From Nitrospirota bacterium (GTDB taxonomy: Bacteria; Nitrospirota; UBA9217), in assembly GCA_963751455.1 (NCBI GenBank), contig CAVVUN010000015.1:800001-864000 (forward strand): a stretch of DNA of 64,000 nucleotides, written 5' to 3'. Position 1 is the stretch's first letter, and every line of letters starts with the position of its first letter. Positions 8,029 to 59,636 of the stretch are shown here, one piece after another. The notes beneath the pieces are model-generated. The model was not told the DNA's origin. It was given only the letters and a program-made list of their open reading frames with translations, and searched no databases. The position numbers and the translations under genes were made by a program.

Positions 8029-8196
8029 GTAACTACCCAGGTCATTTTTTTAGCCGCAGATTACGCAGATTTCGCAGATAAAAACAAAACCAGAATTCCG
8101 GTTTTAGAATCTGCGTCAATCTGCGAAATCTGCGTATAGAAGGGCTTTTTCTTAGATTTGTCTTAATGCTGTTCTGAAAAGAAGCTGAATAGTTAC
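8029..8196. mobile_element. 168-bp MITE with GTAA termini and 8-bp target duplication (IS66-like ends)
   Basis: Ends GTAACTACCCAG / CTGAATAGTTAC; direct repeat TACAAAAA at 8021-8028 and 8197-8204; inverted homolog at 19765-19921; internal CGCAGAT-unit palindrome. Confidence 0.85.
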
Positions 8197-8447
8197 TACA
8201 AAAAAAACATATTGCTATGTGTATGTGCCGCCGTGGTGCTGAAAATGAGATAATGACGCCGCACCATTCATTGTGCGTTCCCTCCTGACCTTTCTGTTAT
8301 ATTTAATACCATCAAGAAGTCCGAACGACCGGCTGCGACCATAGAACTAAAAATATTGCCTGCCGTTCTCTTGCAGAACCCCCTGCAGCTAAATTACTAA
8401 AAAAACTCGCTTCCATACGGCCGCCAGGGGAACAGGAGCGGACCACC

Positions 8448-10199
8448 ATGGCGAAACGCTGCTGTTTACTGATTATTGCGCTCCTGCTCAGCGGCAGACC
8501 GTTGTCAGCAGCGGAACCGGTGGAGATAATTGTGGACGGTGCCGAAGGAGATGCGCTTGCCAACATTCGCGCGGCGCTCACCCTCCCGTACGGCCTGGTT
8601 CAAAACAATGTCGTGAACGAGTTATGGATAGAACGGTTCAGTAAGCAGGCGCCGGACAGGGTTCGCAGGGCGCTTGAGCCGTTCGGCTATTACCATGCCG
8701 AGGTGCACACCAGCCTTATGAAGGTCGATGCGAACAGGTATCGTTTGTTCGTGAACGTGCTGCGCGGAGAACCTGTCCGCATTGTTGAAGTGACCGCTGT
8801 TCTAGAGGGTCCGGGCGCAGCCGAGCCTCTCTTAAAGTCGTGGATCGATCGCTTCCCGCTCCGCAAGGGTGATCCTCTTCTCCAAAAAAAATATGAAGAG
8901 ACCAAGGCGTCTCTCAAGTCCACGGCCGTGAATCTCGGGTATCTCGATGCGGAATTCCCGGTTCACGATATCCGTGTCGATCTCGAACAATTGACTGCCC
9001 GTATCGATTTGCGTCTGAAAACCGGACCGCGATACCGGTTCGGTGACGTCCGGTTCGAGGGAGCCGGCAAGTATCCCGAGGGGTTTCTCTTTCGGTTCAT
9101 CGCCTTTCACCGCGGTGATATATTTTCCTATTCGAAACTTGGAGAAACGCAGCTCAATCTCATAAACTCAGACCGGTTCAGCGAAGTTATTCTCATTCCG
9201 GAAAAGAACGAGGCGCGCGACGATCATGTGCCGGTGCTTATCACGGTAAAGGAAAAGCCTACCAAGCGTCTCCGGCCGGGGATCGGCTACGCGACCGACA
9301 CGGGGCCGAGATTTTCGCTCAATTACCGGGACTTGGACGCTTTCGAACGGGGCCAGGAATTTCATTCTGAACTCAGCCTTTCTCACCGTCTTAAGAACAT
9401 CGGCGCGGGCTACATTTTTCCCGCAGCCCGTGACATCAACAGCTTTTCGGCGATCCGGGCGTATATCGTTAGGGAAGACCTGAGCACTCATGTTATCCAG
9501 TCCGAAACCCTGGAAGTAGACAGAACCCGAAGTCTCGGGAAGGGCCGGCAAGGGACCGTATATACCAGGCTCATCAGGGAGGACTCTTCTGTCGCTGACG
9601 TCGGCACACTCTCGCGCCTGTTGATGCCCGGCGCGCGCTTTTCGGAACGGCGCTATGACAGTCTCATCCGGCCCGTTAAAGGCCACTCCTTCTCGCTCGA
9701 CCTGCATGGCACGCACGAGGCGCTCGGATCGGACACGCATTTCGTTCAGTTGGCGACCGAAGGGCACCTCCTGGCGCCCGTTGCAGGCCGCCTGTCGGTT
9801 CTGGCCAGGGTGACTGCGGGAGTAACGTTGCAGAACGCGGCCTTCGCAGAGCTTCCCGCTTCACTGCGGTTTTTTGCAGGCGGTGACCGCAGCGTCCGCG
9901 GTTATGCATACCAGTCCCTTGGGCCCGCGAACGAGGCTGGCGCTGTAACAGGCGGAAGAAATCTCCTTGCCGCAAGCGTCGAACTCGACCAGGGCTTTTC
10001 GCAGAACTGGGCGACAGCGGTTTTTTATGACGCCGGCAATGCCTTTAATTCGTTCTCCAGTTTTGATCTGTTTTCCGGCGCCGGCATAGGCTTACGGTAC
10101 TATACGGCGGTCGGCGCAATCCGGATCGACATCGCCAGGCAGCTCCGTGTAGAAAATCCGAAGTATCGCCTGCACATAACGATGGGAGTTGAATTTTGA
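8448..10199 (+). CDS. tamA: Translocation and assembly module outer membrane protein TamA
   Basis: Signal peptide, POTRA domains (ALEPFGYY), RFFAGGDRSVRGY, C-terminal Phe; followed by tamB. Confidence 0.92.
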   Translation: MAKRCCLLIIALLLSGRPLSAAEPVEIIVDGAEGDALANIRAALTLPYGLVQNNVVNELWIERFSKQAPDRVRRALEPFGYYHAEVHTSLMKVDANRYRLFVNVLRGEPVRIVEVTAVLEGPGAAEPLLKSWIDRFPLRKGDPLLQKKYEETKASLKSTAVNLGYLDAEFPVHDIRVDLEQLTARIDLRLKTGPRYRFGDVRFEGAGKYPEGFLFRFIAFHRGDIFSYSKLGETQLNLINSDRFSEVILIPEKNEARDDHVPVLITVKEKPTKRLRPGIGYATDTGPRFSLNYRDLDAFERGQEFHSELSLSHRLKNIGAGYIFPAARDINSFSAIRAYIVREDLSTHVIQSETLEVDRTRSLGKGRQGTVYTRLIREDSSVADVGTLSRLLMPGARFSERRYDSLIRPVKGHSFSLDLHGTHEALGSDTHFVQLATEGHLLAPVAGRLSVLARVTAGVTLQNAAFAELPASLRFFAGGDRSVRGYAYQSLGPANEAGAVTGGRNLLAASVELDQGFSQNWATAVFYDAGNAFNSFSSFDLFSGAGIGLRYYTAVGAIRIDIARQLRVENPKYRLHITMGVEF

Positions 10200-13100
10200 G
10201 ACAGCGACTGACTTATATGTTTCTGGTCCTGTTTAGCGCGTCAACCCTCGCCGTTGTTGCGGGCATCGCATGGGTGACCGGTACAACGCAAGGCGCCCGC
10301 TGGCTTCTTGACCAGATATCGCAAAGGACTGCGCTCGAGATCAGTACCGAACGGCTTGAAGGAACGCTTGGCCGCGATTTGCGCGTGCACGGTCTGACTG
10401 TTTCCTGGCCTGGTGGAAATGCGCAGATTAAGAACATGCGGCTTCGATGGCGTCCCATTCTCCTGCTCTCATGCCGGTTCGTTATAACCGGGCTTTCCGT
10501 CGATGACGTCACTATCCAGGACAACGCTCCTGAGGAGAAGAAGCAGCCCGGTCTTTCCATGGCCAACGGTGAGCCGCCTTTTCACATACCTATTTGTCAG
10601 GATCGATCATTTTCATGTCGACCGGCTGCAATACCGGAAACTTGACCGGCCTCCCGTAATAGTAAAAAGATTCTCGGGTACCATCATTCTCGGCAATGGT
10701 TTCATAAGCGCGAACAAAGTCGAGATCGATATGCCGCAGGGCAGAGCCGGGTTGTCCATAAAAGCAGGTCTGTGGAAACCCTCCCTCGATCTCGATATGC
10801 AGTTTATCCCCGCTCATCCTGTTGCAGCAATGGACCGTTTTACCATACGAGCAGATCTTCTTCCCGCCCGTGCCCCGGACCGGGTATCCGGGCCTGTTAA
10901 AGTAGCAGCGATGTCCGGGCCGCGAACCGACCTGGAGGTTGCCGGAATACTCACAGTCGCAGAACAATCCGTTCGCCTTGCCGGGCTGCGCGCCTTTCGT
11001 CCCAATATGAAGGGAACGGCAACAGGCCAGGCCGAACTCATTCTCGCGGCAGATCAACCGTTCTTCCGCCTGCAGCTGAATTTTGCAGGGATCGATCTGC
11101 GTCCGGAACTGACAGTTGCCACTGACCTGTCCGGAAAGTTGAATATCGAAGGCAACCCGGACCGCTATGCGGGCGATATCACGATCGAAAACAGAGGAAA
11201 AGCACCGCGTACGGCTGCACTCTCCGCTTCCTTTCACGGAACTGCGGATGATATCCGGATGACGGCGATCAGGGGAACATGGCTCGGCGGGACGCTGACG
11301 GGTGACGCCAGGGTTTCCTGGAAAGATGCAGCGTCCTTCGCAGCCGCGCTGAAAGCCCGCTCCCTGAATCCTGCCGCTTTTTCGCCGTCATGGGAAGGAA
11401 CTGTAAATGCGGACGTCAGCGCGGCAGCCCGCTGGCCGCGGTCAGGGAAGCCCGAGGGAAGGCTTTCGCTTCTGCTTCTTGAAAGCCGTTTACGCGGAAA
11501 GGATCTGACCGGTGAACTTCGCGTGCGGTCGTCGAAGACTGACGTGCATCTGGACCGGCTGTTTCTTCGCGGGCAAGGCTTTTCCATGCAAGCGGGGGGC
11601 AGTTTGTCCGGAGGAATCCGGATGAAGACGGCTGTTTCGGATATATCGCTCTTCGTGCCGGAAACACGGGGATCAATCGATCTCGAAGGATCTGTCCGCT
11701 TGCGGGCGAATCTTTATTCCGGATGGCTTAAACTGCAGGGTCAGGCCATCGAGATCGAGGGCATAGAGTCAGGGTCGCTGGAACTTTCAGCCGCAGTCGA
11801 CGAGGGTAAGGACTATCCCTTTCGGTTTCACACGGCTTTTGCCGGCTTTACATATAAGGCGCTTCACGCAGACACGATTGTTCTCGACGGCGACGGTACG
11901 CTCTCAAACCACCACATTCGCGCCTCGATCGATTCGCCGGTTTTCAGAGCGGATGCCGCTCTCTCCGGGTCCTATTCGAACGGCGAATGGCTGGGGAGGA
12001 TTGCGCGCCTGTCCGGCCGCGATCATGTGGGTGGCTGGGACCAGGAAGCTCCTTCTGAGTTTCGGGTAAGCAGAGAGAGATTATCGCTGTCCCGGATTAT
12101 ACTGAGAGGCCAGGCCAACGAACAGGTCAAGCTTGACGCCGACGTCATGATCCAGGCCCAGCGCGGTTCAGTCAATGCCGAATGGCGGCAGCTTAACCTT
12201 GCCCGGGCAAACCTCTGGCTCAACGGCCTGGCCTTTTCCGGCGCGACCGACGGCGTGGCAAATTTGCAACTGCCGGAAAGGGGCCGCATTTAGGCAGGGG
12301 CAACCGCTGCGGCATCGGGGACCGTGACGATCGGTACACGCCAGGATCGTCATCAAAGAGTCGTCACTCAAAGGCGAGTGGAACGAACGAGGGCTTCTCG
12401 CTGCCGCGACACTGGTCACGGAACGCGGCAAGGCGCATGCCCGCGTGTACTCATCCGGTCGACCCGGCCCGGCTCTGCCGGAGCATGCCGAGGTCTCGGC
12501 TGACTGGGAAGAGTTCGACCTTGCCCTGATCGGCGCCTGGGTTAAGGACGTTCAGCTGTCCGGAGCAATCTCAGGCCGGTTAAAAGGAACGGTGAACAGC
12601 GGAAAAATACTGGACTTTGCCGGAGAAGTTTCTGTGGCAGAGGGCGCTCTTCGCCGCCGTGTGCGGGACGTTGAGATTTCCGCTGCTGTTAAGAAGGTCA
12701 TTCTCGGCTGGACCTGGCGCGGCGATATACTGAGCGGTTCTATCAAGATGGCCCTTGCAGAACATGGAGAGGCAGATGCTCGTTTCAGTATTCCGCTGCC
12801 GGCCCGTCTACCGGTCTCCATAGAGCCTGGAGGGCACGTTCGCGCTGCTCTTACCGGAACCGTACAAGAACTCGGTATCCTTACCGCATTTTTCCCCGGC
12901 CTTATCGAGGATAGCCGCGGGCAGCTCGATCTTGACCTGCGGGTGGAAGGGACATGGGCAGCGCCGGCTCTGAAAGGCTCCATCGTTCTCGATAAGGCCG
13001 CCGGCTATTTCCCGGCTGCAGGCATTCACGTAACCGGGATTCGCGTCAAAGTACGGATGGAACAGGACCGAATATACGTAGACACCGCCGAAGCCCGCTC

Positions 13101-14193
13101 AGGGCCCGGTACCCTTACGGGTAGCGCCGTGATAGACATGGAACAATGGAGGATTTCCGGCTTCAAGGGCAGCTTGAGCGGCGACGCATTCGAAGCTCTT
13201 TACCTGCCGGACCTGCGAATCCAGCTGAGCCCGCGCATCGAATTCGAAGGCTCACGGCAGAAAGTTTCCGTCAGGGGAGAAATACTCGTGCCGGAGTTTT
13301 TGACCTATGGCCGGCCGCAGGAGGCTTCCATAAAGCCGAGCAGCGACGTCATGATAACGGACGGCACGAGGGAGCCCGCGGAATTGCCCGTTGCTCTCGA
13401 CCTCAAAGTCAAAGTCTTGCTGGGCAAGCACGTTCTCGTAAAAGCAGAGGGGGCCGACGCACAGCTCGGCGGAAGCGTGGAGCTGAGGTCCGGGAAAAAC
13501 AATGAAGTCCTGGGTACGGGCGAAATCACGGTCGTTAAAGGCAGGTACAGCGCCTACGGCGTAAACCTCGATATTAAGAGAGGACGGGTCCTCTTCGCGG
13601 GCGGCCCGGTCGACAACCCGGGGCTCGACATCCTTGCCCTGCGCAGGGTGGGGGAGGTCCGGGCCGGGGTGGTCATTACGGGGTCGACGCAGCAACCGCA
13701 GGTAAAGCTGTATTCCGAACCATCCATGCAGGATATCGATATTCTGGCCTACATCGTGCTCGGCCATCCTTTGGGCGAAGACCGCACCCAGGGCCTGTCC
13801 TTGATGCAGGCGGCAGGACTCCTTCTGTCGGCAGGACAATCGGCAACGCTCCAGGATCAAATGAAACAACGGCTGGGAGTCGATACACTTGATATCGAGA
13901 CGCAGGCCCCGGGCAAGACGCAGACGGTTCCCGGTCAGCCTGCGGGCGCCGCGCCGACGACCGGGCCGGTGGCGCAAACAGGCGGACAGCCCGCGGGGGA
14001 CCAGGTGGCCCGTTCTCTCATAACGGTCGGCAAATATCTTACACCCAGGTTATATGTCAGTTATGGCCGGTCCCTGTTTACCGGCGAAAACGAATTCAGG
14101 CTGCGGTATTCGTTCTCGAAGCGCTGGGAAGTGGAAACGCAAACCGGCATCGAAAGCGGTGTCGATCTTTTCTATAAAATAGATTTCGACTAG
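10196..14193 (+). CDS. tamB: Translocation and assembly module TamB; frameshifts near 10550 and 12290
   Basis: N-terminal TM (GTTQGARWL), beta-taco repeats, DUF490-type C-terminus TVGKYLTPRLYVSYG...GVDLFYKIDFD across three ORFs. Confidence 0.9.
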
Positions 14194-14465
14194 TACAACG
14201 TAAACCTAGTTGTTAATAGTTCCACGACGTCATTACGGTGTGCTTTAAGCCAACAAGCCGGAACTAAAAAGATTGAACCGCGAGGGCGCAAAGGTCGCCA
14301 GGAAGGCAATACTATCCTGTGGCATATTACGGGAATTTCGCTTTCCTCGCGTTCCTCGCGACTTCGCGGTAAATGTTCCTGCCGTTTTGAGAGGAATTCG
14401 ATTTGTAACTGACTACTGGACCCGGCTAAAGGTGCAATACAATCAAGAATTAGTTTTACAGTGCA
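14194..14465. mobile_element. Candidate 272-bp CTAG-flanked MITE carrying a CGCGAAG-type palindrome (14276-14370)
   Basis: CTAG at 14190-14193 and 14466-14469; imperfect TIR TACAACGTAAACCTAGTT vs TGCACTGTAAAACTAATT (13/18); internal ACAAGCCGGAACTAAAA end motif. Confidence 0.55.
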
Positions 14466-14518
14466 CTAGCAGTGTTGAAAAGTCGATTATTCCGGTTATA
14501 AAGGCAGGAGGTGCGGAC

Positions 14519-14905
14519 ATGACTTACTATTTTACCAAGACCGTGCAGACAACATTCGAAGACGCGGTAAAGCGCGTGACCGAGGAACTCGCAAAGGAAG
14601 GATTCGGCGTCCTGAGCGATATCGACGTGAAAGCAACCTTCAAAAAGAAATTGAACGTTGACTTCAGGAACTACCGGATCCTGGGTGCATGCAATCCGCA
14701 GTTTGCCCAGCGTGCACTGGAGGTTGAAGACAAGATAGGAACGATGCTTCCCTGCAGCGTGGTCGTACAGGAAATCGAAAGCGTCGGCGCTGAAGTTTCG
14801 GCAATCGACCCTGTGATGTCGATGCAAGCGGTCCAGAACCCGGAGCTGCAGGCAATCGCCGAGGAGGTGCGCGAAAAGCTGAAAACGGTCATACGAAAGG
14901 TATGA
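14519..14905 (+). CDS. DUF302 domain protein
   Basis: EGFGVLSDIDV..TFKKKL...YRILGACNP..A...IGTMLPC; RBS GGAGG before ATG 14519. Confidence 0.9.
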   Translation: MTYYFTKTVQTTFEDAVKRVTEELAKEGFGVLSDIDVKATFKKKLNVDFRNYRILGACNPQFAQRALEVEDKIGTMLPCSVVVQEIESVGAEVSAIDPVMSMQAVQNPELQAIAEEVREKLKTVIRKV

Positions 14906-14931
14906 GGCTCAAACCCGAACAATTACGGCGT

Positions 14932-15690: not shown

Positions 15691-15966
15691 AGGCCGATAA
15701 TCGGGTTCAGGAAAACGAGGCTTCACACAGTGCTACCTTGGTAAGGATGCCGGCAGGCCGGAGATGGTTCCAATGATAGAATATTACGGCAGTTGCGTCA
15801 AGCTGAATCCCGGCAACTCATGAAATGATAGACGGAGAATTCATTGTAGCGGAACCGGGGATCAAGGCGGGACAAGGGAAAGAGATCAGGCTCGACCGGA
15901 ACAAGGGAGTAATGAAAACCTGTTTCAAGGAAATCCAGAGGTCGCTACATTCCCAACTCTGTATTT

Positions 15967-16203
15967 CTAGCCTTGTTTTTTCTTCTCTTCATACAGAGCG
16001 AGCAAAGGCAGGGTATCCATGTTCAGGACATTTGCATACATCTTCAGATAACCCCGGTCGAACACGTTCGGGATGCTCTGAAATTTACCCTCTTCCATGT
16101 CCTTGAGATAATGAGCGCTTATGCGGGTCCTCCTTGCAATGTCTCCGATCTCAAGTCCGCGCGCCACTCTTCCTTCTTTCAACATACGACCGATATTACG
16201 CAT
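15967..16203 (-). CDS. Small HTH protein (RodZ N-terminal / HTH_25-like domain only)
   Basis: IG..LKEGR...G..I.DIARRTRIS..YL..MEEG.F...RGYLKMYA. Confidence 0.8.
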   Translation of the reverse strand: MRNIGRMLKEGRVARGLEIGDIARRTRISAHYLKDMEEGKFQSIPNVFDRGYLKMYANVLNMDTLPLLALYEEKKKQG

Positions 16204-19764: not shown

Positions 19765-19921
19765 GTAACCATTCAGCTTCTTTTCAGAACGGCATTAAGA
19801 CAAATCTGAGAAAAAACCCTTCTATCCGCAGATTTCGCAGATTTACGCAGATTTTTACCGGAATTCTGGTTTTGTTTTTATCTGCGTAATCTGCGGATAA
19901 AAAAATGACCTGAATAGTTAC
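19765..19921. mobile_element. 157-bp MITE with GTAA termini and 8-bp target duplication; inverted homolog of 8029-8196
   Basis: Ends GTAACCATTCAG / CTGAATAGTTAC; direct repeat AAAAAATT at 19757-19764 and 19922-19929; one 9-bp unit fewer than copy 1. Confidence 0.87.
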
Positions 19922-26079: not shown

Positions 26080-26243
26080 CCTGAAAAAAGCAGTTGGACA
26101 CGGATAAAATCTGATCAACACGGATTTATAGGAAGTTACGAACAGTAATGGATTCACCCAAAAGGCGAGATGGCTTTTTGCTCTATCACATTGTTTTGAT
26201 CCGCTGTTTCCGTGTTCATCCGTGTTCAAATGCCGTTTTTAGG
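26080..26243. mobile_element. 164-bp MITE, CCTGAAAAA...TTTTTAGG ends, 5-bp target duplication
   Basis: Identical to 31537-31700; flanks ATCAT / ATAAT (4/5); internal CACGGAT-unit palindrome. Confidence 0.88.
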
Positions 26244-30643: not shown

Positions 30644-30719
30644 GGCGGTGTAGCTCAGCTGGTAGAGCAGGGGAATCATAATCCCTGTGTCCGGGGTTCG
30701 AGTCCCTGCACCGCCACCA
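30644..30719 (+). tRNA. tRNA-Met (CAT), elongator type
   Basis: 76-nt cloverleaf: GGCGGTG/CACCGCC acceptor stem, anticodon CAT, GGTTCGAGTCC T-arm, encoded CCA; G1-C72 pair excludes initiator; Ile2 not formally excluded. Confidence 0.93.
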
Positions 30720-31536: not shown

Positions 31537-31700
31537 CCTGAAAAAAGCAGTTGGACACGGATAAAATCTGATCAACACGGATTTATAGGAAGTTACGAAC
31601 AGTAATGGATTCACCCAAAAGGCGAGATGGCTTTTTGCTCTATCACATTGTTTTGATCCGCTGTTTCCGTGTTCATCCGTGTTCAAATGCCGTTTTTAGG
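31537..31700. mobile_element. 164-bp MITE, identical to 26080-26243
   Basis: Perfect 5-bp direct repeat ATGAG at 31532-31536 and 31701-31705; removing it restores a CCGCGAAG...CTTCGCGG hairpin. Confidence 0.9.
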
Positions 31701-35678: not shown

Positions 35679-35895
35679 GCCGCGGAGGCATGGAGAACTG
35701 ATTTATTTTTTGTACTACTCAGCAGGCCTGCATAAGAAAAGCATTTTTGAACCCAGAAAAACATTTATCCGCAGATTTCGCAGATGTCCGCAGATTTGAA
35801 AATCTGCAAAATTCAAGTTCGGTTTAATCCGTGAAATCTGCGTAATCTGCGGATAAGCATCATATACCCAGAGTTTTTTCTGTGTCTCTGTGGTT
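35679..35895. repeat. Nested palindromic elements: outer CACAGAG-type arms, inner CGCAGAT-type pair at 35765-35856
   Basis: Inner TTATCCGCAGATTTCGCAGATGTCCGCAGATT ... AATCCGTGAAATCTGCGTAATCTGCGGATAA; outer GCCGCGGAGGCATGGAGAA ... TTCTGTGTCTCTGTGGTT. Confidence 0.8.
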
Positions 35896-35942: not shown

Positions 35943-36032
35943 GTTCAAGGTCCGATGTTCTCTCGACAGCTCTTTCCGCTCAGCGTGCAGCGCCGAAACC
36001 CGGCTCCCTGTCTCGAACATTGTACCTGGAAC
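35943..36032. repeat. Inverted repeat with ~7-bp periodic arms
   Basis: GTTCAAGGTCCGATGTTC (35943-35960) vs GAACATTGTACCTGGAAC (36015-36032), 15/18 complementary. Confidence 0.6.
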
Positions 36033-36046
36033 CGGGAAGGACCGCA

Positions 36047-38450
36047 ATGACTACCGACCTCCAACGCCCTCAATCCCGATCACCCTTGCAATCCGGCGAA
36101 GTCCATCTCCATGATTACATTCGTGTAATCATGCGCCGCCGCCGGTCCTTTCTCATCGCCTTCTGCGTCGTCTTTTTTTCCGTAGCCGTTTACACGTTTG
36201 CCATGAAGCCGGTTTACCAGGCATTCGCCACGCTGCAGGTGCGGGAAGAGAAGGGCAAAGGGGACCTTCTCGGCGCACTGGGGGTGAGCCAGCAGAGCCC
36301 GGTTGATGCCGAGATCGAAATCATCAAGTCGCGCACCAATGCCGAGCAGGTCGTGAAGCGGCTTCAACTGGACCTGCAGGTGGCCAAACAGACGCGGGGA
36401 TTTTCCTTCAAAATCGCCGACTTCGCAAGCGCCGAGCCCCGGGCGGTGTATCGCGTGGAGTTGACGGGTCCGGACAGTTACCAGGTGCTCGACAGCGACG
36501 GCAAACCGGTCGGCGCCGGAAAAAGCGGCGTGCTCCTGCAGGCGGGCGCCCTGAGGCTTGTCCTGACCGGCCTCAAGGGCAAGCCGGGCGACAGTTTCCA
36601 GCTTTCCTCCCGACCCCTGTATGCGGCTGCCGACAGTCTTAAAGGAAGGATCAAGGCCTCCGAGGTGGGGAACAAGACGAAAATCATCCGCCTGTCATAC
36701 GAAGACACCGACCCGGTCATGGCCCGGGACGTAGTCAATACGCTGGTCCGGGTCTACCTGGACCAGAGCGTGGCCTTCAAGACCGAGGAGGCGAGCAAGG
36801 CCCTCGATTTCATAGAAGAGCAGATGAACAGCGTGCGGGGCGAGCTCGACGTTTCTGAAAAAAACCTGCAGGTATATAAGACCGGTTCCGGCGTGGTCAA
36901 GCTCGATAGCGAGGCGGGAGAGCTTGTCAAAAGGATTTCCGAAGTGGAGAAGGAGAGAACAAATCTTGTTTTGCAGCGCAAGCAGGTTGAGTTTGCCCTG
37001 GCCGCGCAGCGGGATTCGCTCGAGCAGGGCGCCGTTTATATCCCGGCTGGGGGCAAGGACGACCCGCGTGGGCACGATGGCCGCCAGGCTGACGGACCTG
37101 GAAGTGCAGAAGCGGACGCTTCTTGCCGACTACACCGAGACCCATCCTGCCGTCAGAGCCGTCCAGGAGCAGATCGGTGAAGTTCAGAAAAAAATCCGGA
37201 ATGCCTACGAGACCAGCCTGAAAAACCTGGAAAAACAGGCGGAAATCGTAACCCGGCAACTGTCGCTCTACGAAGGAGAATTCCGGAAACTTCCCGCAGC
37301 GGAGCGCGATTTGGCCCGCCTCATGCGCCACACCACGGTGAGCGCCGAGGTTTACACCCTTCTCCTCCAGAAACGCGAGGAGGCGCGCATTGCCAAGGCC
37401 TCCACGATCAGCAGCATCAATGTTATCGACCCGGCCATAACGCCCGCCACGCCCCTGAGACCGAACAAGCGGAAGAACCTCATGCTCGGCCTCCTGGTCG
37501 GCTTGATGCTCGGGGCGGGTCTGGGCTTTTTCCAGGAGTACCTGGACGACACGATCAAGGACGCCGAGGGGGCCCGGCGGGAATTCAGCGCTCCGGTCCT
37601 GGCGATCATACCTTTTATTCCTCATCGCAACGGCGACTCCGCGGAGGAACACGGCCTTTCTCTCATCGCTCAACGGGAACCAAAATCGTCCGTGGCCGAG
37701 GCTTTCCGCGGCCTCAGGACCAGCCTTCACTTCTCCGCCATCAACCGGGAAAAGAAATTACTCATCTTCACCAGCGCCTTTGCCGGCGAGGGAAAGACCA
37801 CCATCGCCGCCAACCTGGCGGCCACCCTGGTGCAAACCGGGGCCCGGACGCTGTTGATCGACTGCGACCTGCGTCGTCCGAACCTGCATGAGTTCTTCAA
37901 GCACGCCAAGGCGCCGGGACTCACCGAAGTCCTTGCCGGCGACGCGAGCTTTGAGAGCGTTCTCCGCGATACCGGGCTCGCCGGGCTCGATTTCGTCAGC
38001 GCCGGCACTACCCCTCCCAACCCGGCCGAACTTCTCGGCTCCGGGCGGATGGCGGAGCTGCTTCTCAGATTAAAGGGCGCCTACGATCATATTCTGCTCG
38101 ATGCCCCGCCGGTCCTCGCGGTCACTGATGCGCCGCTCCTGACGATCCGCTGCGACATGGCCCTCATTGTCATGGAGACCGAGCGGGTGCCGGTCAAGGC
38201 CGGCCGTCGAATGGCCGAGATGCTTGCCAACGTCAGCGCGCCCGTGGCCGGGGTGATCGTCAACGACAAGTCAGGCCGCAGCCTCGAGCGTTACGGCTAC
38301 TACCGCGATGGTTATTACGGCTACGGGTATTACGGGTCCGGATATTATTCCGACGAGGAGCCCGAATCCCGGAGAAAAGGTCCGCGGCTGCTGCGGCTGC
38401 TTCTCCCGGGAAAGAACGGGTTGTTCGTAAAAAAGTCGAAAAGGCCGTAG
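36047..38450 (+). CDS. wzc: Polysaccharide co-polymerase / BY-kinase Wzc; frameshift near 37060
   Basis: Wzz-like N-terminus; YTETHP; AEAFRGLRT, AGEGKT, IDCDLRRP, DAPPVL; C-terminal Tyr cluster. Confidence 0.93.
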
Positions 38451-38476: not shown

Positions 38477-38544
38477 TGAACTATTCAGGTCAGCCGCTTC
38501 ATATCGGTGCTAGGCGCGCCGAGAGATCTTTAACGAATAGTTAC
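38477..38544. mobile_element. Short remnant with ends resembling the GTAA-type MITE
   Basis: GAACTATTCAG ... GAATAGTTAC; no clear target duplication. Confidence 0.45.
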
Positions 38545-38561
38545 CGGAGAATAAGGAAAGC

Positions 38562-39339: not shown

Positions 39340-39606
39340 TGCAGATAACGCTGATTTCGCAGATAAAAGCAAACCTGAATTCTAAAAAATCAAAAGCTAA
39401 TCCTGACTTGTCATGAAGTTATTTTCATCCCAGCGGCAGAGCTGCGGGTATTTCAGGATGTTTTTATAAAATCTGATTTACATCGGATTTACCAAATACC
39501 GTTCAGGTCTTCATACTTCACCCAGAGGATGAAACGCTGTCTTGTCCTATCGCTTTGTTTTTATCCGCAGTTTCCGTGTTTATCCGCGTCCAAATGTTTT
39601 TTCAGG
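39340..39606. repeat. Composite of decayed repeat arms and the right end of a CCTG-type MITE
   Basis: Solo arm CTGCAGATAACGCTGATTTCGCAGAT; truncated arm ATAAAATCTGATTTACATCGGATTT (~39467); right arm and end ATCCGCGTCCAAATGTTTTTTCAGG followed by ATGAA. Confidence 0.7.
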
Positions 39607-40395
39607 ATGAATAATTCAGAATTCAAAACTCAAAGCGCAACGGATTACCATTGTCATCTGCTGCCCGGCATAGACGACGGCCCTTCCACCATGGACGAGT
39701 CGGTAGAGCTGGCAAGGGCTTTCCGTGGGGCAGGCTATACCACGGTTTTTTGCACGCCGCATCTGGTTAAGGGCAGCTTCGACATCGACAACGCAACGGT
39801 AGGGACGGTCCGGGCCGCGCTCCAGGCCGAACTCACACGACGACAGATAGACCTGCGGCTCCTTCCGGGACGGGAATACTATCTTGACGAATTTCTCATG
39901 GAATACCTGCAAGATCCCCAGCCGCTCGGAAATTCAAGGTTTCTCCTGATCGAGGTGCCCGACTATGCGCCGGCGGAGTTCGTCAAGGATGCCTGCTACC
40001 GGATCAAATGCAGCGGCTACGTGCCCATGATCGCGCATCCTGAGCGGTGTGTTCTCTTTGCCTTGCCGAAGCAGAAACAGGAAAGCGTATTAGGCAAGGC
40101 TCTGAGGACGATATTTACCGGGGGCGGGAAAAATAACTTTAAAACCCGGGCCTTGAACGCCGGAGGCGCGACTAATGAACTGCTGGATTATTTGAGGGAC
40201 ATCGGCTGCGCTTTTCAGGGGAATCTGGGGAGTTTTTTCGGAATGTACGGCGAGCGGGTGCGGAAAGCCGCCGACGGCCTGCAGGAAATTCAGCTCTATA
40301 CGCATTTCGGCACCGATGTTCACGCACTTGAAAACCTGCGGCATCTGCTTCATATCAGGACGCGGGTTCATCAAAATCTGAACGCTCTCTATTGA
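39607..40395 (+). CDS. CpsB/CapC-family PHP tyrosine phosphatase
   Basis: DYHCHLLPGIDDG, TPH, IAHPER, GTDVH. Confidence 0.92.
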   Translation: MNNSEFKTQSATDYHCHLLPGIDDGPSTMDESVELARAFRGAGYTTVFCTPHLVKGSFDIDNATVGTVRAALQAELTRRQIDLRLLPGREYYLDEFLMEYLQDPQPLGNSRFLLIEVPDYAPAEFVKDACYRIKCSGYVPMIAHPERCVLFALPKQKQESVLGKALRTIFTGGGKNNFKTRALNAGGATNELLDYLRDIGCAFQGNLGSFFGMYGERVRKAADGLQEIQLYTHFGTDVHALENLRHLLHIRTRVHQNLNALY

Positions 40396-44339: not shown

Positions 44340-44556
44340 CCTGACCCGGACAAGCCGGAACTAAGATTGTTATACCACAGGCGGCTTCGCCGCACACAGA
44401 TAAACACAGATGAGAGTCTGAAAAAGGCACCGGGTCAAAAACAACTTAAAGTTCATCAGACTTTCTTCGCCCGATTGGAGAGCACATATTTCGATTTAAG
44501 ATTTTGAATCACCCGTGTTTATCTGCGTTCACCTGTGGTTAAATGCTTTTTCCAGG
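44340..44556. mobile_element. 217-bp element with non-identical CCTG ends and 5-bp direct repeat ATTAA
   Basis: Left CCTGACCCGGACAAGCCGGAAC, right TGCTTTTTCCAGG; ATTAA at 44335-44339 and 44557-44561; internal CACAGAT-unit palindrome. Confidence 0.7.
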
Positions 44557-49760: not shown

Positions 49761-49764
49761 GTTT

Positions 49765-52075: not shown

Positions 52076-52108
52076 TAACCGAATCACGGGCATCCGGAGA
52101 CGAAATCA

Positions 52109-52711: not shown

Positions 52712-52819
52712 CGCGATACAACGCACCAGGGAGATGCACCTTGAGGAAAATTCTGGCGTACACGCTGGGGGACGACGGTTTTAAACTCGCGCGAAAATAC
52801 AGGTCCTAGACTGACGACA

Positions 52820-53840
52820 ATGAAACCCGAACAGCACAAAAATGTGACGCCGGTCAGCGTTATTGTGAGCGCTTATGCGGAGGCCCCTTATCTTGAAGAT
52901 ACACTGGCAAGCGTTGCAGGCCAACTGCACGATGGAGATGAGTTGATTGTCTTTCATGACGGAGTGGAAGAATGGTCAACTGCCGCCGGTTACTGGCATG
53001 ACGTTCAGTATACAACGTACCGGGCGGGCCGCAAGTTAGGTCTGGAACGAAGCTGGTCGCATGCTCTGATGCTCGGAAAAAATGATTGGATTCTCTGGAT
53101 GCACCATGATGATCTGCTCAGGGACGGGGCTCTGAGTATGCTCAAAAAAGCGGTTTTCGAGCATCCGATGGCTACCCTTGCATGCGGCGGTTATATAACA
53201 TTCACTTCCGGCAAAGACGCTCCGGACTGGTATCAATACCCGCTCTCGGGGGGCCTGCGCGAAATTGATGCAAATCAGAATTTAGCAAAATACCTTTTCA
53301 GCTTTCAGCACATATGTTCAGGACTTTTGATGAAAAGGACCGCGCTTGAAGCCGTTCTTCCAATACCCGATGATTTTGGGTCGGCGTCCGACGTTTGGCT
53401 ATATCAACGTTTAGCTTTTCAGGGAAATGCCGTTTTCCTGCGTGATGTTACGGCAGCTTATAAGAGCTCATCCCGGCACGGAGACAAATCGCTGTTTATC
53501 AAATTGGAGGGGCAGGCGGGCCTGGAGCCGATCGAGGCGCAGGCAAATGACCGATTGCTGCAATCTTATACGGAAAAAACAGTTAAGCTCCGACTTTGTC
53601 GCAAGGGTTGCGGAGAAAGAACCCGGAGCTGTGATTATGGATATCATGCGAGCTCTTATCCGTGCACGAAGCGGTTTTGCGAGGCCTCTTGTGGAGGCAA
53701 TAGAGAAGGTTCGTCCGGAACTGCTCCGTACCCCGGGATGGAGGAGAATAAAAATCGCGTTGGCTCTGGGCCCGTGGTCGCTTGAAGTGACGGGGGCCGT
53801 CGTTGCCGTTTTGAATAAAGGTGAAGGTTCTAAACAATGA
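52820..53840 (+). CDS. Glycosyltransferase family 2; frameshifted after ~53470
   Basis: VSVIVSAY, YLEDTLASV, WMHHDDLL, DVWLY. Confidence 0.8.
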
Positions 53841-53951
53841 TATTTTCCGGTTGTAAATCACAACTGTCCGGACGTTTACTGACTGCATCAATTAATGGTC
53901 AGCGGACTGTCGGGATGGTATTTGCCGAGGAACCATAACCAGAGGGAAAAG

Positions 53952-54625
53952 ATGGAATACAAAGGACTTTTCCAGGGAACGGGTATCCGCGGACTTCATG
54001 ACGCAGTTATTGAGGCGCTTGCCTCATTTCTCACTGGCAATTCCAAAATACTGGATTGCGGCGCCGGAAGCGGAGCCTTTGCATTGAAATTAAAGGATCA
54101 GGGGTATGCCGTTGAAGTTATGGAATTAGACGGGGCTTTATTCAAGCCTAAGGAGATTACCTGTTATATTGCGGATTTTAACTACAATTTTTCAGATTTG
54201 CCGGATAAAAAATACGATATCATTACGTCTATCGAGGTTATTGAACATTTGGAAAATCCAAGACACCTGCTCAGGGAATGCTGCAAGCTGCTGAAGCCGG
54301 AAGGCAAACTGCTTATTACCACACCGAACATCGAATCCATACCGGGGAGGCTGCGTTTCCTGTTAAAGGGTAATTTCAGGTTCTTTGATGAAGACCCGGC
54401 TAGGAATGAACCTACACACATAACCCCTGTTCAATCTGAAATGTTGAAACGCGCCGCTTTTGATACGGGCTATGAACTTATATGTCACAAAGTATATCCT
54501 GAAAAATATTTTGAGAACGCAAGAAGAATAGTCACGCATATCTCGCGGATGATCGGCCCCTGCTCCGCGGCGTCAAATACGGCGACAGGCATATATTTAT
54601 TTTTAAAAAGGTTTCGAAAGCATGA
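53952..54625 (+). CDS. Class I SAM methyltransferase (artefactually fused to the next gene in the ORF track)
   Basis: ILDCGAGSG, IEVIEHLENP, ITTPN; likely stop TGA 54623-54625 in a shifted frame. Confidence 0.82.
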
Positions 54626-55653
54626 GATCCTCATGTATTCCCCCGCATTTTATCCCGGCATCGGCGGCCTGGAAAACGTCGCGGCAATGGTGGCGGAGGG
54701 GTTGACCGAACTGGGGTGTCAGGTTACGGTGGTTGCAATGACGTCAGGCCTGGGCGATGAGGCGCGCTTTCCTTATACCGTGGTCCGGCGGCCGGGGCCG
54801 CTGCACCTCCTTCGCCTTGTGCAATGGTGCGACATTTTTTTTCACCATAACGTCAGCCTCAAGGGTATCTGGCCTTTGCTGTTCATCAAACGTCCCTGGG
54901 TGGTGGCCCATCATGGCTGGTATTCCCGCAGCAACGGCGCTATAGGCTGGCGGGACCTGTTAAAGCGCCGGGCCACCCGCTTCGCGACGAACATTGCCGT
55001 AAGCATGGCCGTTGCCGATCATCTCGGCGGCGTGGCTGCCGCTGTTATCCCGAATCCGTACAACGACGCTCTTTTCCGGGAAATACCTTCAATCAGCCGG
55101 GACCGCGAACTGGTCTTTTTAGGCAGGCTGGTCTCGGATAAAGGCTGCGACCTGCTGCTGGAGTCCCTGGTGATGCTGAGACAAGAGGGGTTGACGCCGC
55201 ACCTTACCATAATAGGCACAGGGCCGGAAGAAACCCTCTTGCGGGCTTGTGTGGACCGCCTCGGATTGGAGCGCCAGGTCAGCTTTGCGGGAACATTGGC
55301 AGGGGAGGAACTCGTAACGCGTTTGAATCACCACCAGCTCCTGGTGACGCCATCCCGCTGGAACGAGCCGTTCGGTATTGTGGCGCTTGAGGGTATTGCC
55401 TGCGGCTGTTTGATCGTTGCCTCTTCCGGCGGCGGCCTTCCCGAAGCCGTCGGCCCTTGCGGCTTGACCTTTTCCAACGGGGATGCCCGCGCTCTGGCGG
55501 ACCGTATAGCAGACGTTCTGCGGCGCCCCGAACGCAGGGCCGTGTACTTGCAGCGCCCCCGCGCACCTGTCCCGGCACCGGCGCGCGCATGTTGCACGCG
55601 CCTACCACGAGGTGCTCGAACGGGTGCTTGCCGGCAAGAGGCTTCAGTGCTAG
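54622..55653 (+). CDS. Glycosyltransferase family 4; frameshifts at start and near 55550
   Basis: ILMYSPAFYPGIGGLE, FLGRLVSDKG, PSRWNEPFGIVALEG. Confidence 0.88.
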
Positions 55654-56926
55654 AGCGTCAAGCCCTTATCGCTTTTTTTGTCTACCTGGTCCTCAAAGGG
55701 GCCCTGCGCAAATGGCTCTTCCCGTCGTTTTCAAACGAACTCTTTCTCGTGAAAGATATTTTGCTCCTGGTCGCTGTTTTCGGCTGGATGGGGAAGAGCA
55801 TCATCATCCGCGACAGAGTCGCTTCGGCCGTCACTCCGTGGAAGCCCTGCTGCTGTGGGGATGGGCGCTCTTTTTGGGATTCTGTTTGATCAGCGGTTTT
55901 TCCTTTACGGCCCTTGTGGGGCTGCGTTACTACCTGGTAATGCTGCCGCTCGCGATCATTCTGCCGCACGTCGTCGATGACGTGCCGATTTGAATCGCCT
56001 GGCCGGACGCTACTGCTGGCTGGCCTTTCCTGTTGCCTGCTGGGTATTGCACAGTTCTTCAGCCCGCCGGAGGCCTTTATCAACCGTTATGCCTGGAGCA
56101 ATCCCTCAATGGGGGTGGCTGGTTTGGGGCTGAACAAGACGCGAATAACAGGCACTTTTTCCTACATTGCGCCTTATGCCGTGTACCTGCAGTTCGTGTT
56201 TCTGGCCGGTCTTGCCCTGTTCAAGCTCTCGGGCCGCGGAAGGTCGCGGATTTTGCTCGGGGCGGGAACCGCCCTGGTGTTCGTGAACATCGTCATGACC
56301 GGGTCGAGACCCCTTTTCTGCTTTCGTCGGTGCTGGCCGTCCCTTTTTTTTTGAGTGCTTTAAAAGAGGCATCGATGAAAAAGGGACAAGTCTTTTCCTT
56401 ATCAGCATCTTTTCTGGTGATCGGCCTGCTTCTCTTTCAGTTCGGCAATGTTTTTTCCCTGCTGTCGCAACGGAACATCGAGGCTCGTGATACTGATAAG
56501 AGAGTAACCGGGGCGCTGTATACGCCGCTGCATACTCTGAAAAATGCCGAACTCGCAGGGGCGGGAATCGGGACTACGTTCATGGGGGTGCGCGAAATCA
56601 GTGGCGAATCGGAAGAGGCCGGCTTTGATGAGGTAACGATTGACCGCATAGGAGTGGAAACCGGCATTTTTGGATACTTGTTTGTGTTGATCTTCAAGCT
56701 GGTCTTTCTCGGAAAAGCCTGGACCCTGTACCGCGGGGCATTTGACCGGTCCGTTAAAACATGGGCGCTTGCCGTCTTCTGTTACCAGTTGACTTCCCTG
56801 TGGAGCGTGCCCGTGTACAATTCCACGGCCGCGGCCCTTTATTTTGCAAGCCTTGGTCTTTATGTTCTGCTGCGGAATGAGCAGCAGAAGCAGGTCCAGG
56901 CGCTCACTCACGCTTATCCCCCGTAG
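55647..56926 (+). CDS. Putative Wzy-type polysaccharide polymerase; several frameshifts
   Basis: Multi-TM; GALRKWLFP, RITGTFSYI, TGSR, GAGIG, ETGIFG across four ORF pieces. Confidence 0.7.
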
Positions 56927-56934
56927 GGACACCG

Positions 56935-58117
56935 ATGCCTGTCGCGGTCATTCACCCGCAAGTGCAGCACTCACATCAAGCGGCATGGGCGCTTGCCGAA
57001 GCAGGTCTTCTGGAACGGGATCACACCTCATGTTTTTTTGAACCCGCGCGCTGCGTTTTCTGCCGCCCTTTTTGCGGCGCGAATTCGGCAAGCGTTATCA
57101 CCCCGGTACTCCCTTGTTGCGGGTGGCGACCTTTCCCTGCCCGGATATTGCCTGGAAACTGGCGGGCGCATTGGCCGGCCCCGCATTGCATGAGCGGCTT
57201 TATTACTACAGCGTCTGGCGCTTCGATGCTCATATGGCGCGTCGGGTGGCCCGCTCTCCGGCCCGCATCGTTACGGGGTTTGAGAATTCGTGCCGGGACA
57301 TTTTCAGGGCGGCCGGAAAAGCCGGAAAATTTGCGTGCTCGATGCAGCTTCCGTCCATTACCTGGCCCAGAAGGAAGTGTATATGCCGCCTTATTCGGCG
57401 GCCTTTCGGGACAAGATAAACACGAGGAAGGAGGAGGAGATACGGCTTGCCGACCGCATCCTTACACTTTCCGGTTATGCGAAGGAAACCTATGTCCGTT
57501 CCTGCATCCCGGAGCATAAGATTACGGTGATCCCGCCTGGCGTTGACGGGCGCAGATTTGCCATGGAAAAGAAGAAGAGGACGAGAAACTCTTTTAAGTA
57601 TCTATTTGTCGGAAACATAAAGCCGGCCAAGGGGGTTGATATTCTTTTGAACGCTTTTAACCGTATAGAAGCGCCGGGCAAGAAGCTGACCATCATAGGG
57701 GCCATGGGTGATGCCGCTCACCTGCTCGGAAACAGACAAAATAATATTGCCGTTAAGGGATATGTGCCGCATGAGAAACTCCCGGAAGAGTATAACGACG
57801 CGGACATTTTCATTCTCCCTTCCAGGCTCGACGGTTTCGGGCTTGTCGTGACCGAAGCAATGTCAACGGCCACTCCGGTGATCGTGTCCTCACATGTCGG
57901 GGCGAAAGATCTGGTCAATGACGGCGTCAGCGGCTGGGTGTTTGAGTCCGGCGATCATGAGGCGCTTGCGGATGCAATGCAAAAAGCTTACGACAACAGG
58001 GACAGGCTGGTTTCAATGGGTGAAAAGGCAAGGGAGGCCGTCAGCCTGTATACCTGGGAAGCATACAGAGAGAATATCCGGAGGTTTTATTCAAGCCTTT
58101 TCGAAACGACGCAATGA
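56935..58117 (+). CDS. Glycosyltransferase family 4; frameshifted ~57030-57330
   Basis: HPQVQHS N-terminus; FVGNIKPAKG, PSRLDGFGLVVTEAM. Confidence 0.85.
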
Positions 58118-59307
58118 GAATCCTTCACGTCATCCGTGACCTTTCCCCGGCAACCGGCGGCCCGGTAACTGCCGTTCTGGGCATGGCCGCGGCAGAGTCA
58201 ACTCTGGGGAACGCGGTAACAATCATTACTACGGACCATGGTCTGGATGCTTTACCGCGGGAACACGGCGTCGGATTCAAAGTATTTCCCTGCCGGCTGC
58301 ACGGCTGGCGCTGGTCGCGGGAGTTGTCTCAGGGATTGCCGGTATTCATCAGGAATTCCGACATCGTCCATATCCACACAATCTGGGAGCACCCGACGTG
58401 GGTTGCGGCAAAAATCTGCGAAAAGCTTGAAAAGCCCTATGTCCTCCGTCCCTGCGGGATGCTGGACAAATGGTCTCTTTCCCGGAGCGCCTGGAAGAAA
58501 AAGGCTTATTTACATTTACTGGCGGCTTCCGTCATACGCCGCGCCGCCGCGCTGCACTTCACGTCGGAAGAAGAACTGAATAATTCCCTTATCATGGGAA
58601 GCGAAGACAGGGGTTTTGTTATACCGAACGGCCTGCCATTGTCGATTTTTCAAGACATCCCGGGACCACATCTTTTTCGCCGGCGCTTTCCGGAGCTGGA
58701 AGACAAACGGATCGTGCTGTTCCTGGGCCGGCTCCATTACAAAAAACAGCCTGAGTCGGCAATAAAGGCGTTTCACAAAGTCCGCGGTATTGATGGACGG
58801 CTGGTCCTTGTCCTGGCCGGTCCGGCTGAGCCGGCATATCTTGCTGAACTGCGGGCGCTAGTGAGGGACCTGCGCGTGTCGGACCGGGTTGTCTTCACCG
58901 GCTTGCTGCAAGGCGCCGCAATACGCGAAGCCTTCCATGCCGCCGAATTGTTCGTGCTTCCCAGCCTGCAGGAAAATTTCGGGATAGCCGTTGCGGAAGC
59001 CATGGCCGCCGGCTGCCCGGTCATTGTCAGCGAGCCGGTCAACCTGTCATCGGAAATACGTTCCGCCGATGCGGGTGTAGTCTGCAAGTCCGACGTCAAC
59101 TCTATCGCCGCCGCAATGGAGCAGCTGATAAAAGACGATTCGCTTCGAGCATTGATGGGTGAAAACGGCCGCTGCCTTGTATCCGGCAAATTCATGTGGC
59201 CGCAGGCAGCCGGCAGGCTGCTTCACGTTTATGAAGACGTGATTGCATCGAATCGGACCAGTCCGGACTGGAGAGGTAAGTTTTCACCCCGCGAGCTTAG
59301 TAACTGA
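58114..59307 (+). CDS. Glycosyltransferase family 4
   Basis: MRILHVI...GGP, FLGRLHYKK, PSLQENFGIAVAEAM. Confidence 0.92.
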   Translation: MRILHVIRDLSPATGGPVTAVLGMAAAESTLGNAVTIITTDHGLDALPREHGVGFKVFPCRLHGWRWSRELSQGLPVFIRNSDIVHIHTIWEHPTWVAAKICEKLEKPYVLRPCGMLDKWSLSRSAWKKKAYLHLLAASVIRRAAALHFTSEEELNNSLIMGSEDRGFVIPNGLPLSIFQDIPGPHLFRRRFPELEDKRIVLFLGRLHYKKQPESAIKAFHKVRGIDGRLVLVLAGPAEPAYLAELRALVRDLRVSDRVVFTGLLQGAAIREAFHAAELFVLPSLQENFGIAVAEAMAAGCPVIVSEPVNLSSEIRSADAGVVCKSDVNSIAAAMEQLIKDDSLRALMGENGRCLVSGKFMWPQAAGRLLHVYEDVIASNRTSPDWRGKFSPRELSN

Positions 59308-59350
59308 GGAATCAAATTCTTCTTAAAATGGAAAGAAAAAAGTCAACTTT

Positions 59351-59636
59351 TTTGACGCTGATTTACACTGATTACCTATGAACCAAGAAAAGGCATTTGG
59401 GACGCAGATAAAATCGGATAAACGCGGATAAAGACAGACAAAAAAATACTTCCGATGCTGAAAAAAGACACACCTTTGTGGTGAATACTCTTTCCGCCTG
59501 AATGTTTGGTTTTATCTGCGAAAATCTGCGGCCAACTACCGTTTTTAGGATGAAGAATCATGATGTTTCATCAGGTTTAATCCGCCTTTATCCGTGTCAA
59601 AGTCTTCGACTTGGTTGTTTTTTTGTCCGGGTCAGG
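59351..59636. repeat. Outer palindromic element (10-bp units) interrupted by a MITE, ending in a TTGTCCGGGTCAGG end motif
   Basis: TTTGACGCTGATTTACACTGATT ... ATCAGGTTTAATCCGCCTTTATCCGTGTCAAA; end motif at ~59623-59636. Confidence 0.7.
59383..59549. mobile_element. 167-bp MITE of the CC..AGG type with 5-bp duplication ATGAA
   Basis: CCAAGAAAAGGCATTTGG ... CCAACTACCGTTTTTAGG; ATGAA at 59378-59382 and 59550-59554; internal CGCAGAT/CGCGGAT palindrome. Confidence 0.82.

Follow-up and report, generated by a model that had tools for sequence, protein, structure and literature searches.

How does one kind of hairpin come to lie inside mobile elements whose ends belong to unrelated families? This question is raised by a 64,000-nucleotide stretch of DNA, hereafter called the window, from a Nitrospirota bacterium (C15:800001-864000 of genome G000, an assembly of 5.7 Mb), in which short elements bounded by several kinds of ends enclose palindromes of tandem heptamers. 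A sequence-only reading of the window had placed this palindromic cargo in at least three end types. A genome-wide paired-end scan confirms this and extends it to at least six. It appears fairly probable that the palindromes are hitch-hikers under element-level selection, with relics of the arms of GxxExxY nuclease cassettes filling miniature elements of these end types, likely amplified by the transposases of the parent families. The term hitch-hiker is justified as the cargo is foreign to its carriers. Three points had been missed before: the GxxExxY origin of the palindromes, the lack of terminal inverted repeats (TIRs) in one of the end types (type iv) and the presence of other hairpin classes between the same ends. 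The packaged palindromes of the window lie in miniature transposable elements with inverted repeats (MITEs) and in TIR-free mini-elements, with ends partly assignable to families of insertion sequences (ISs):

8029..8196, forward strand: type i MITE with ends that look IS66-type; 168 bp, perfect 8-bp duplication, an arm of three CGCAGAT units at 8055-8079 and the inverse arm at 8109-8134, hairpin z = -7.0.
14190..14469, forward strand: type iii, CTAG-flanked MITE; 280 bp, outer remnant of a CGTC-type hairpin with an eroded type iv element within.
14252..14415, forward strand: the type iv element nested in this type iii MITE; clipped left-end hairpin, palindrome of the CGCGAAG/CGCAAAG flavour and right end (right-end profile match E 2e-7).
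19765..19921, reverse strand: type i MITE of the same family as the copy at 8029, in opposite orientation; 157 bp, perfect 8-bp duplication.
26080..26243, forward strand: type ii MITE of 164 bp with IS1380-like ends; the two copies of the 5-bp duplication differ at one position (ATCAT/ATAAT), CACGGAT arms abutting the inverted repeats.
31537..31700, forward strand: type ii MITE, 99% identical to the copy at 26080; perfect 5-bp duplication.
44340..44556, forward strand: single-copy hybrid of a type iv left end, a CACAGAT palindrome and an IS1380-like right end, with ATTAA on each side.
59301..59636, reverse strand: type iv mini-element in complete form; the hairpin of its left end, at 59636, is degenerate, and its right end borders on CTAA (59297-59300) and overlaps the stop codon of the upstream glycosyltransferase open reading frame (ORF).
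59383..59549, forward strand: type ii MITE in the loop of this type iv palindrome; ATGAA duplicated, perfect 5-bp duplication.
63550..63824, reverse strand: type iv mini-element with a CGCAAAG/CGCGAAG palindrome and a further small repeat in its arm (~63601-63700); right boundary approximate.

The cargo consists of two or three tandem CRCRRAK heptamers opposite their inverse. Under strict rules 166 such palindromes were found genome-wide, compared with five in the reverse order and none in either of two 6-mer shuffles; relaxed rules, which miss most type ii copies, gave 266 compared with three in the control. The same arms bracket genes of the GxxExxY family (TIGR04256; ten matches in this genome, eight of them over the cut-off), whose product is a PD-(D/E)XK protein (PF13366) and which are present in 24 of 31 family genomes. 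At 34 such loci, taken from this genome and its relatives, inverted-repeat flanks (score of at least 30) occurred in 25/34 cases and in 0/34 controls; arm units stood on both sides of 29/34, with all flavours represented. As the genes sit between the same arms, the cargo can be regarded, judged by its sequence, as a gene-less form of the GxxExxY cassette, and the palindromes as gene-less copies of its arms. The GxxExxY nuclease would presumably be the enzyme that moves the cassette. The idea that all end types carry the same cargo holds for the architecture but not for the sequence, since loops cluster within end types with two exceptions (C3:340099 and the hybrid C2:462850). Only 17 of the 120 end-less palindromes have a loop relative. 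The word GGTTTWA was seen in 16 of 101 bare-palindrome loops (shuffle mean 2.05, maximum 8). Membership in the REP/RAYT system, defined by a GTAG-tagged hairpin and an HUH Y1 transposase, was rejected, as the heptamer arms flank PF13366 genes. GxxExxY palindromes were not described in the literature searched, outside which lay ISfinder, supplements and most subscription papers.

All counts of end types given here refer to paired ends in the whole genome; unpaired pattern matches, which are many for loose patterns (256/365 for type i), were left out. Type i, with GTAAC..TCAG ends and the 8-bp duplications that had been proposed, comprises 55 paired elements, 35 of them with a perfect duplication like the two in the window, and 47 fall into one family of ~167 bp; a few singleton pairs are probably due to chance. 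A resident IS66 element (over the cut-off) also starts with GTAAC and duplicates 8 bp, and its repeat departs from that of type i after the fifth base; judged from this, the type i ends look IS66-type. IS1-like proteins in the vicinity of type i ends yielded no ends of their own, searches of viral contigs for type i and type iv ends gave chance matches or none, and a derivation of the type i right end from that of type iv was dismissed, as there was no profile match at E<20. At window positions 38477-38547 there is a degenerate, single-copy type i-like element of 70 bp without cargo.

Type ii is the largest group, with 101 elements, of which 84 have a perfect 5-bp duplication, and with lengths of 164 bp (56 copies) or 174-177 bp (25 copies). 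The 5-bp ATNAN duplications reported for four window copies are perfect at 31537 and 59383, but the copy at 26080 has a mismatch, that at 44340 is the hybrid, found once in the genome, and the consensus is WTNAW. Both type i and type ii choose A+T-rich targets. An IS1380-like element with type ii ends is resident in four copies without arms; of ten full-length partner copies in three genomes, none carries arms and eight have a perfect 5-bp duplication. The partner transposase matches PF13701 over the cut-off and the NCBIfam IS1380 model at E 2e-34, under its cut-off. With a resident transposase, the same ends and a 5-bp duplication, type ii can be placed in the IS1380 family. At two IS1380-like copies (C1:632492 and C3:332553) the duplications do not match; the flanks of the two appear to have changed places, as would result from recombination of one copy with another.

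The CTAG-flanked candidate is a real element, but it starts at 14190 and not at 14194. Type iii comprises 17 CTAG-ended elements (CTAG at both ends in 16; nine near-identical full copies), which occur in a 173-bp form with the CGTC hairpin only, a 280-304-bp form with a nested type iv element and a ~225-bp form in which the inner ends are eroded and which was also seen at two metagenome loci. Eleven profile matches at E<1 mark the nested type iv right end. Type iii has thus acquired its heptamer cargo second-hand, from the nested type iv element. No full-length type iii partner was found in 60 other genomes or 40 metagenome loci, and no IS701-type domain in this genome; domain searches of the genome for ISAzo13 and IS91 types gave no match, but the controls for both were silent as well.

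The motif CCTRACCCGGACAARCCGGAA, which had been described as lying next to the palindromes as a fourth end motif, is real, but it is the left end of an element and not a mere neighbour. Genome-wide, 27 of its 49 occurrences are paired with a right end of unrelated sequence, and the left end is found exactly in 31 of 41 family genomes. Of two places where a degenerate motif had been noted, ~14250 is the nested type iv element, whereas ~61062 is a bare palindrome at which type iv is not recognisable. A relative (G046) holds seven identical copies of a 1,653-bp element with the same left and right ends, no inverted repeat and CTAA at both ends in all seven copies, and a 3' remnant of this parent with the right end remains in the present genome. 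Among the best 80 of 595 parent loci, most of them from other phyla, arms inside the ends were seen in none; the left-end motif was present in 65/75 and the right-end motif in 67/73 scorable loci of several phyla (controls 0 and 2 of 47). By its ends, type iv is not a MITE but the miniature form of the 1,653-bp element.

The single gene of this parent encodes a 514-amino-acid protein, annotated 'MarR', with at least 8,000 homologues that are named hypothetical or MarR regulator. Its structural model (pLDDT 81) predicts a C-terminal MarR-type winged helix and a TBP-like core, for which the comparison gave Z 8.0 (root-mean-square deviation 3.9, 180 residues aligned), a range that the structure-comparison tool grades as common. 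Residues D31, E255, D259, K327-x-Y329-D-K331 and E339 are invariant in 52 close homologues (mean identity 74%), and their order agrees with that of RepDE and Rep-Arvir, as far as the part of the source consulted describes them (PMC13107129). A viral fold library returned TBP-like and unnamed matches, and the Atlas returned unnamed clusters at up to 0.82, which serve as a lead only. From the model, the enzyme is predicted to act as a rolling-circle nuclease and not as one of the known transposases. Type iv would then move by a tyrosine nick-and-join reaction of a Rep_trans-like protein and insert 5' of CTAA without a true duplication, and tandem arrays of types iv and vii are compatible with insertion 5' of CTA(A); an empty site of the type iv parent was not seen. 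Besides the ordinary grade of the Z score, two results count against this assignment: no transposase or replication family was matched in Pfam (E<=1) or NCBIfam (E<=0.1), and true Rep_trans structures match weakly (4cij E 0.043, 4cwc E 0.059). A domain-only model made without an alignment reached pLDDT 33, and a sequence search of solved structures returned nothing useful. Two other assignments of the parent were rejected: IS91/ISCR, as there is no match to the HUH Y2 family and the fold is TBP-like, and IS110, as the protein has no IS110 match. An IS based on Rep_trans was not described in the literature searched, within the bounds given above.

Type v comprises 28 paired elements, 18 of them with a perfect 6-bp duplication and 27 of 134 or 135 bp, with 26 CGTC-type and two GxxExxY interiors. 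Its ends match a five-copy resident IS1182-like element, which has no arms and whose stop codon lies inside its end. Type vi (15 paired elements) and type vii (13 copies in this genome) have the same asymmetric end design as type iv, and their parent was not found. Types i, ii, iii and v show the inverted repeats, target duplication, multiple copies and non-coding interior of MITEs; in types iv, vi and vii the sequence of the left end is unrelated to that of the right end. Type vii copies, for example at C12:484002 and C15:313437, often follow immediately on a type iv right end in a tandem arrangement. In a second CTAG type, 25 interiors are of the GTAG and six of the CGTC class, and CAGGCTG ends enclose three hairpin classes.

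Taken together, ends and cargo pair many-to-many, and other hairpin classes fill the same ends as the GxxExxY arms. At least five arm flavours occur at the same position between the ends of types iv and vi in this genome and its relatives. In the relatives type iv holds many flavours, and at locus L066 (G006:C10) it holds a different tandem 7-mer array without a palindrome, at locus L081 no cargo at all. The interior is not a deletion product of a parent IS, as would be usual for a MITE: the partners lack arms, and the arms match GxxExxY cassettes. Attempts to match ends to autonomous ISs of the genome, as had been proposed, succeeded for types ii and v with resident partners and for type iv with the remnant, but gave no exact partner for types i, iii, vi and vii.

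In the nestings that can be traced, an element has jumped into a palindrome or into another element. Type i lies within a type ii loop at three places, one of which was later deleted between the arms. At 59383..59549 a type ii element lies within the type iv palindrome loop, and a contig of run X1 represents the empty site, in which 59374 is joined to 59550 with a single ATGAA (shorter side 117 letters; four other letters between), which confirms the 5-bp duplication, and the type iv mini-element 59301..59636 is seen there without the inner MITE. No empty site of type i or type iii was among the joints listed. In contigs of the same run, 196 letters of other sequence stand where the window has 61050-61255, and 36 where it has 3698-3847; both are palindrome-bearing junctions. 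Palindromes and ends also serve as IS110 targets: of two IS110 elements, L038 (C2:628740-631991) and L039 (C12:619221-622475), one sits in a CGCGAAG arm and one in a type vi right end. That type iv or vi ends are themselves IS110 ends was rejected, as these elements are later insertions into arms or ends, and a close relative of one of them was absent from 40 genomes of the phylum. Small repeats of ~25-100 bp were observed at fixed positions of the arm heptamers (four type i copies at 96, four type ii copies at 34; window 63601-63700 and C2:248784, C9:411606, C15:560285 and C15:1255008), with one family reaching ~38 loci.

Palindromes without ends differ in placement from packaged ones. Those of the window, together with one decayed relative, are:

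386..545, no strand assigned: bare palindrome of the CGCAGAT flavour, no shared flanks.
1691..1767, no strand assigned: bare palindrome behind an efflux adaptor gene.
3714..3834, no strand assigned: bare palindrome behind a permease ORF, with CACAGAG as an additional arm.
35770..35851, no strand assigned: bare palindrome within the polysaccharide operon.
39480..39610, forward strand: decayed type ii relative, 76% identical to 26153-26232; boundaries approximate.
61090..61212, no strand assigned: bare nested palindrome, a CGCGAAG arm followed by a CACGGAG palindrome; no type iv element recognisable.

Genome-wide, bare palindromes occupy co-oriented gene junctions in 100 of 108 cases, at a median of 23 bp past the stop codon, compared with a background of 3,811 co-oriented junctions among 4,829 (79%); these figures rest on rough gene calls made for this analysis. 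Types i (43/54) and ii (72/101) match the background, and types iv (24/27), v (25/28) and vi (14/15) lie mostly in co-oriented junctions. Packaged types lie farther from the stop, with medians of 47-149 bp, distances that nesting inflates.

The hitch-hiking account would proceed in four steps. Cassettes land just behind stop codons, lose their gene and leave bare hairpins that are mostly unique; the pattern is observed, and the part of the enzyme in it would be that of the mover. A hairpin then gets between element ends, mostly, it seems, by nesting of small elements. For type iii this route can be followed: an older CTAG MITE received a type iv mini-element together with its hairpin, and the ends of the newcomer were subsequently eroded. 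As none of the full-length ISs found has a palindrome in its interior, we can only infer the first capture for types i, ii, iv and v. Deletions between the repeated arms of nested elements would create hybrids. Packaged lineages reach high copy numbers and bare ones do not. Finally, ends would be trimmed to a minimum and the filler held to certain lengths. If the filler can fold, the transposase probably finds it easier to bring two close ends together, so that any abundant hairpin class would be recruited; the near absence of hairpin-free multicopy elements points to such an advantage.

Several observations weigh against this account. A capture intermediate was absent from the 80 type iv parents and the ten IS1380-like copies, exact full-length partners of types i, iii, vi and vii were not found, and a pattern search of the 34 GxxExxY loci found no gene between paired ends; one GxxExxY gene of this genome, overlooked by that search, abuts a lone type vi-like left end. 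Length steps of ~10 bp can also be explained by the loss of one arm unit, and types iv, vi and vii show no strand (lagging-strand) bias. A hairpin is moreover not strictly required, as it is absent or deleted in a few elements, namely type i forms of 69 and 134 bp with perfect duplications, L081 and L128. None of these forms is multi-copy. L081 and L128 were rejected as pre-insertion targets; their cargo-side flanks are kept, so that they are more likely hairpin deletions. Insertion of the cassette behind a transposase stop was likewise dismissed as a general capture route, as there is no intermediate and the stop of the type v partner lies inside its end.

If hairpins and mobile ends simply gathered in A+T-rich intergenic refuges, the filler would usually be a hairpin without any benefit from folding. 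A strict arm is already present in 409 of 4,829 junctions, loops are 69% A+T, types i and ii prefer A+T-rich targets and nested stacks are many, all of which would fit such a neutral pile-up. Yet a recognised hairpin class was found in 31/31 CTAGTGTAG-ended, 11/11 CAGGCTG-ended, 4/4 TAGAGTCTG-ended and 13/13 type vii elements (loose patterns, no shuffle control), unrelated interiors converge on lengths of 130-135 bp, and six other IS end types have no short paired derivative; we therefore consider neutral accumulation unlikely. The possibility that the GxxExxY nuclease recognises hairpins or element interiors and installs or swaps the cargo, so that long-lived ends gain new flavours, would make the palindrome a hyperparasite, as the sequence-only reading had suggested. 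The five or more flavours at one position in types iv and vi would agree with it, as would two same-direction arms in 36 of the 409 occupied junctions (about twice the Poisson expectation of ~4%, a hand estimate) and the different 196 letters that the run X1 contig has at 61050-61255. Many of the double-arm junctions are, however, MITE insertions into loops, an extra arm within 330 bp occurs at only one of the 34 GxxExxY loci, bare copies favour stop-codon junctions and a gene-bearing cassette between paired ends was not found. The part of the suggestion that stands is a foreign cargo, as the partners have no arms, but preferential insertion into MITEs is not demonstrated, and such targeting appears quite unlikely.

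Selection at the level of the host, by which operons tolerate hairpin MITEs since the transcript is protected, or at least not stopped, by the RNA hairpin, has in its favour the junction preference of types iv, v and vi and the orientation of type i relative to flanking transcription (29:10, p = 0.003, one of ten tests). As the two largest families follow the background and every packaged type lies farther from the stop than bare palindromes, with the reservations on gene calls and nesting given above, this explanation, also raised earlier, is very unlikely; it is bare and not packaged hairpins that crowd tight operon junctions. That all ends derive from a single IS family with the arms as its normal subterminal repeats can practically be dismissed. 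Types ii and iv both start with CCTRA and are joined in the hybrid at 44340, but the partners are a DDE protein of IS1380-like type, an IS1182-like protein and a non-DDE protein with a predicted TBP-like fold, and duplications are of 8 bp, 5 bp, CTAG, 6 bp or none. Ends and duplications are reproducible, and the families that supply the ends are unrelated. Nor can the arms be ordinary subterminal repeats, as none of the ten IS1380-like partners and none of the 80 type iv parent loci carries them; this already refutes the single-family idea. Beyond the hitch-hiking account, it may tentatively be proposed that type iv represents, in non-autonomous form, a large and so far unrecognised IS class that uses a Rep_trans (TBP-fold) tyrosine nuclease rather than a DDE, HUH or serine enzyme. 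Bacterial miniature elements would then as a rule not shrink from a parent but arise when a nuclease-associated hairpin is trapped between minimal ends, where it serves as a hinge that lets ends pair over a short range.

In the sections consulted of the literature on bacterial MITEs (Correia, RUP, Nezha, Chunjie), these are, like types i, ii, iii and v, short, non-coding and stably folding high-copy elements with inverted repeats and target duplications, and like types ii and v they share ends with a resident IS. Here, in contrast, the interior is a nuclease-cassette hairpin and not what is left of the parent IS, the same hairpin classes occur in families that are unrelated, and inverted repeats are absent from types iv, vi and vii. 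The parts of two MITE reviews that were consulted note stable folding without naming a foreign source of hairpins (PMC3184786, PMC10969869). The nearest precedent are GTAG/CGTC REP dimers, which according to section 7 of Di Nocera 2013 (PMC3733652) lie regularly inside longer inverted-repeat shells of which the empty form was not found, an issue left uninvestigated there. The same arrangement is found here with GTAG- and CGTC-type hairpins; in that section the shells are not identified as IS ends and the heptamer (GxxExxY) class is not covered. Rep_trans initiators (pT181 RepD, RepSTK1) and Rep-Arvir are described, in the part consulted, as replication proteins of plasmids and viruses (PMC13107129). 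To judge from the model and that part of the source, the 514-amino-acid protein would share their TBP-like fold, the YxxK-type motif and three acidic positions in the same order, and with Rep-Arvir also the C-terminal MarR-like helix-turn-helix. It differs from them in that its gene is the only one in a chromosomal insertion that is multicopy and has defined ends.

Comparison with two further systems leads to a similar mixture of features. REPs and REPINs are gene-less, GTAG-tagged intergenic palindromes that match repeats around the gene of a RAYT (HUH Y1) transposase. The palindromes described here resemble them in being gene-less and abundant, in matching repeats around a small nuclease gene and in being targeted by IS110, but their arms are tandem 7-mers without a GTAG tag and the protein is PD-(D/E)XK (PF13366) and not HUH. 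IS91/ISCR elements have a single gene, no inverted repeats and a hairpin at one end, insert beside a fixed tetranucleotide and form tandem arrays. The type iv parent shares the single gene, the lack of inverted repeats, the hairpin at one end and the tandem arrays, and would likewise insert beside a fixed tetranucleotide, whereas its protein has a TBP-fold and a winged helix in the model and no Y2/HUH match. The system is thus possibly best described as MITE biology with an undescribed cargo, joined by a TIR-free mini-element that is tied to a possibly new transposase class.

As for the surroundings, the window carries transport genes and a polysaccharide cluster, and an Rfam scan returned a single tRNA and nothing else. 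Behind this tRNA (30644-30719, CAT anticodon) lie small ORFs and an integrase-like remnant region. Three genes are each split over two frames, MacB-like (2479-3701), TamB (10503-14193) and Wzc (36020-38450), which may be assembly errors or pseudogenes. Long diverged duplicate segments were noted in the genome at C2:27026-41903 and C12:8260-27196. As contamination of the assembly is listed as 5.4%, some repeat copies may stem from a second strain.

For the biology of such elements these results offer a source of the stable hairpins long noted in bacterial MITEs, which can be borrowed from other selfish DNA, with ends and cargo assorting freely. They also give GxxExxY, an uncharacterised nuclease, a defined candidate substrate on the DNA. 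An IS family whose homologues, thousands in number, are annotated as 'MarR' or hypothetical now has exactly mapped ends, a word that marks its target, a tyrosine that is a candidate for catalysis and a mini-element of natural origin, and as all four are at hand the transposition chemistry of type iv is directly testable.

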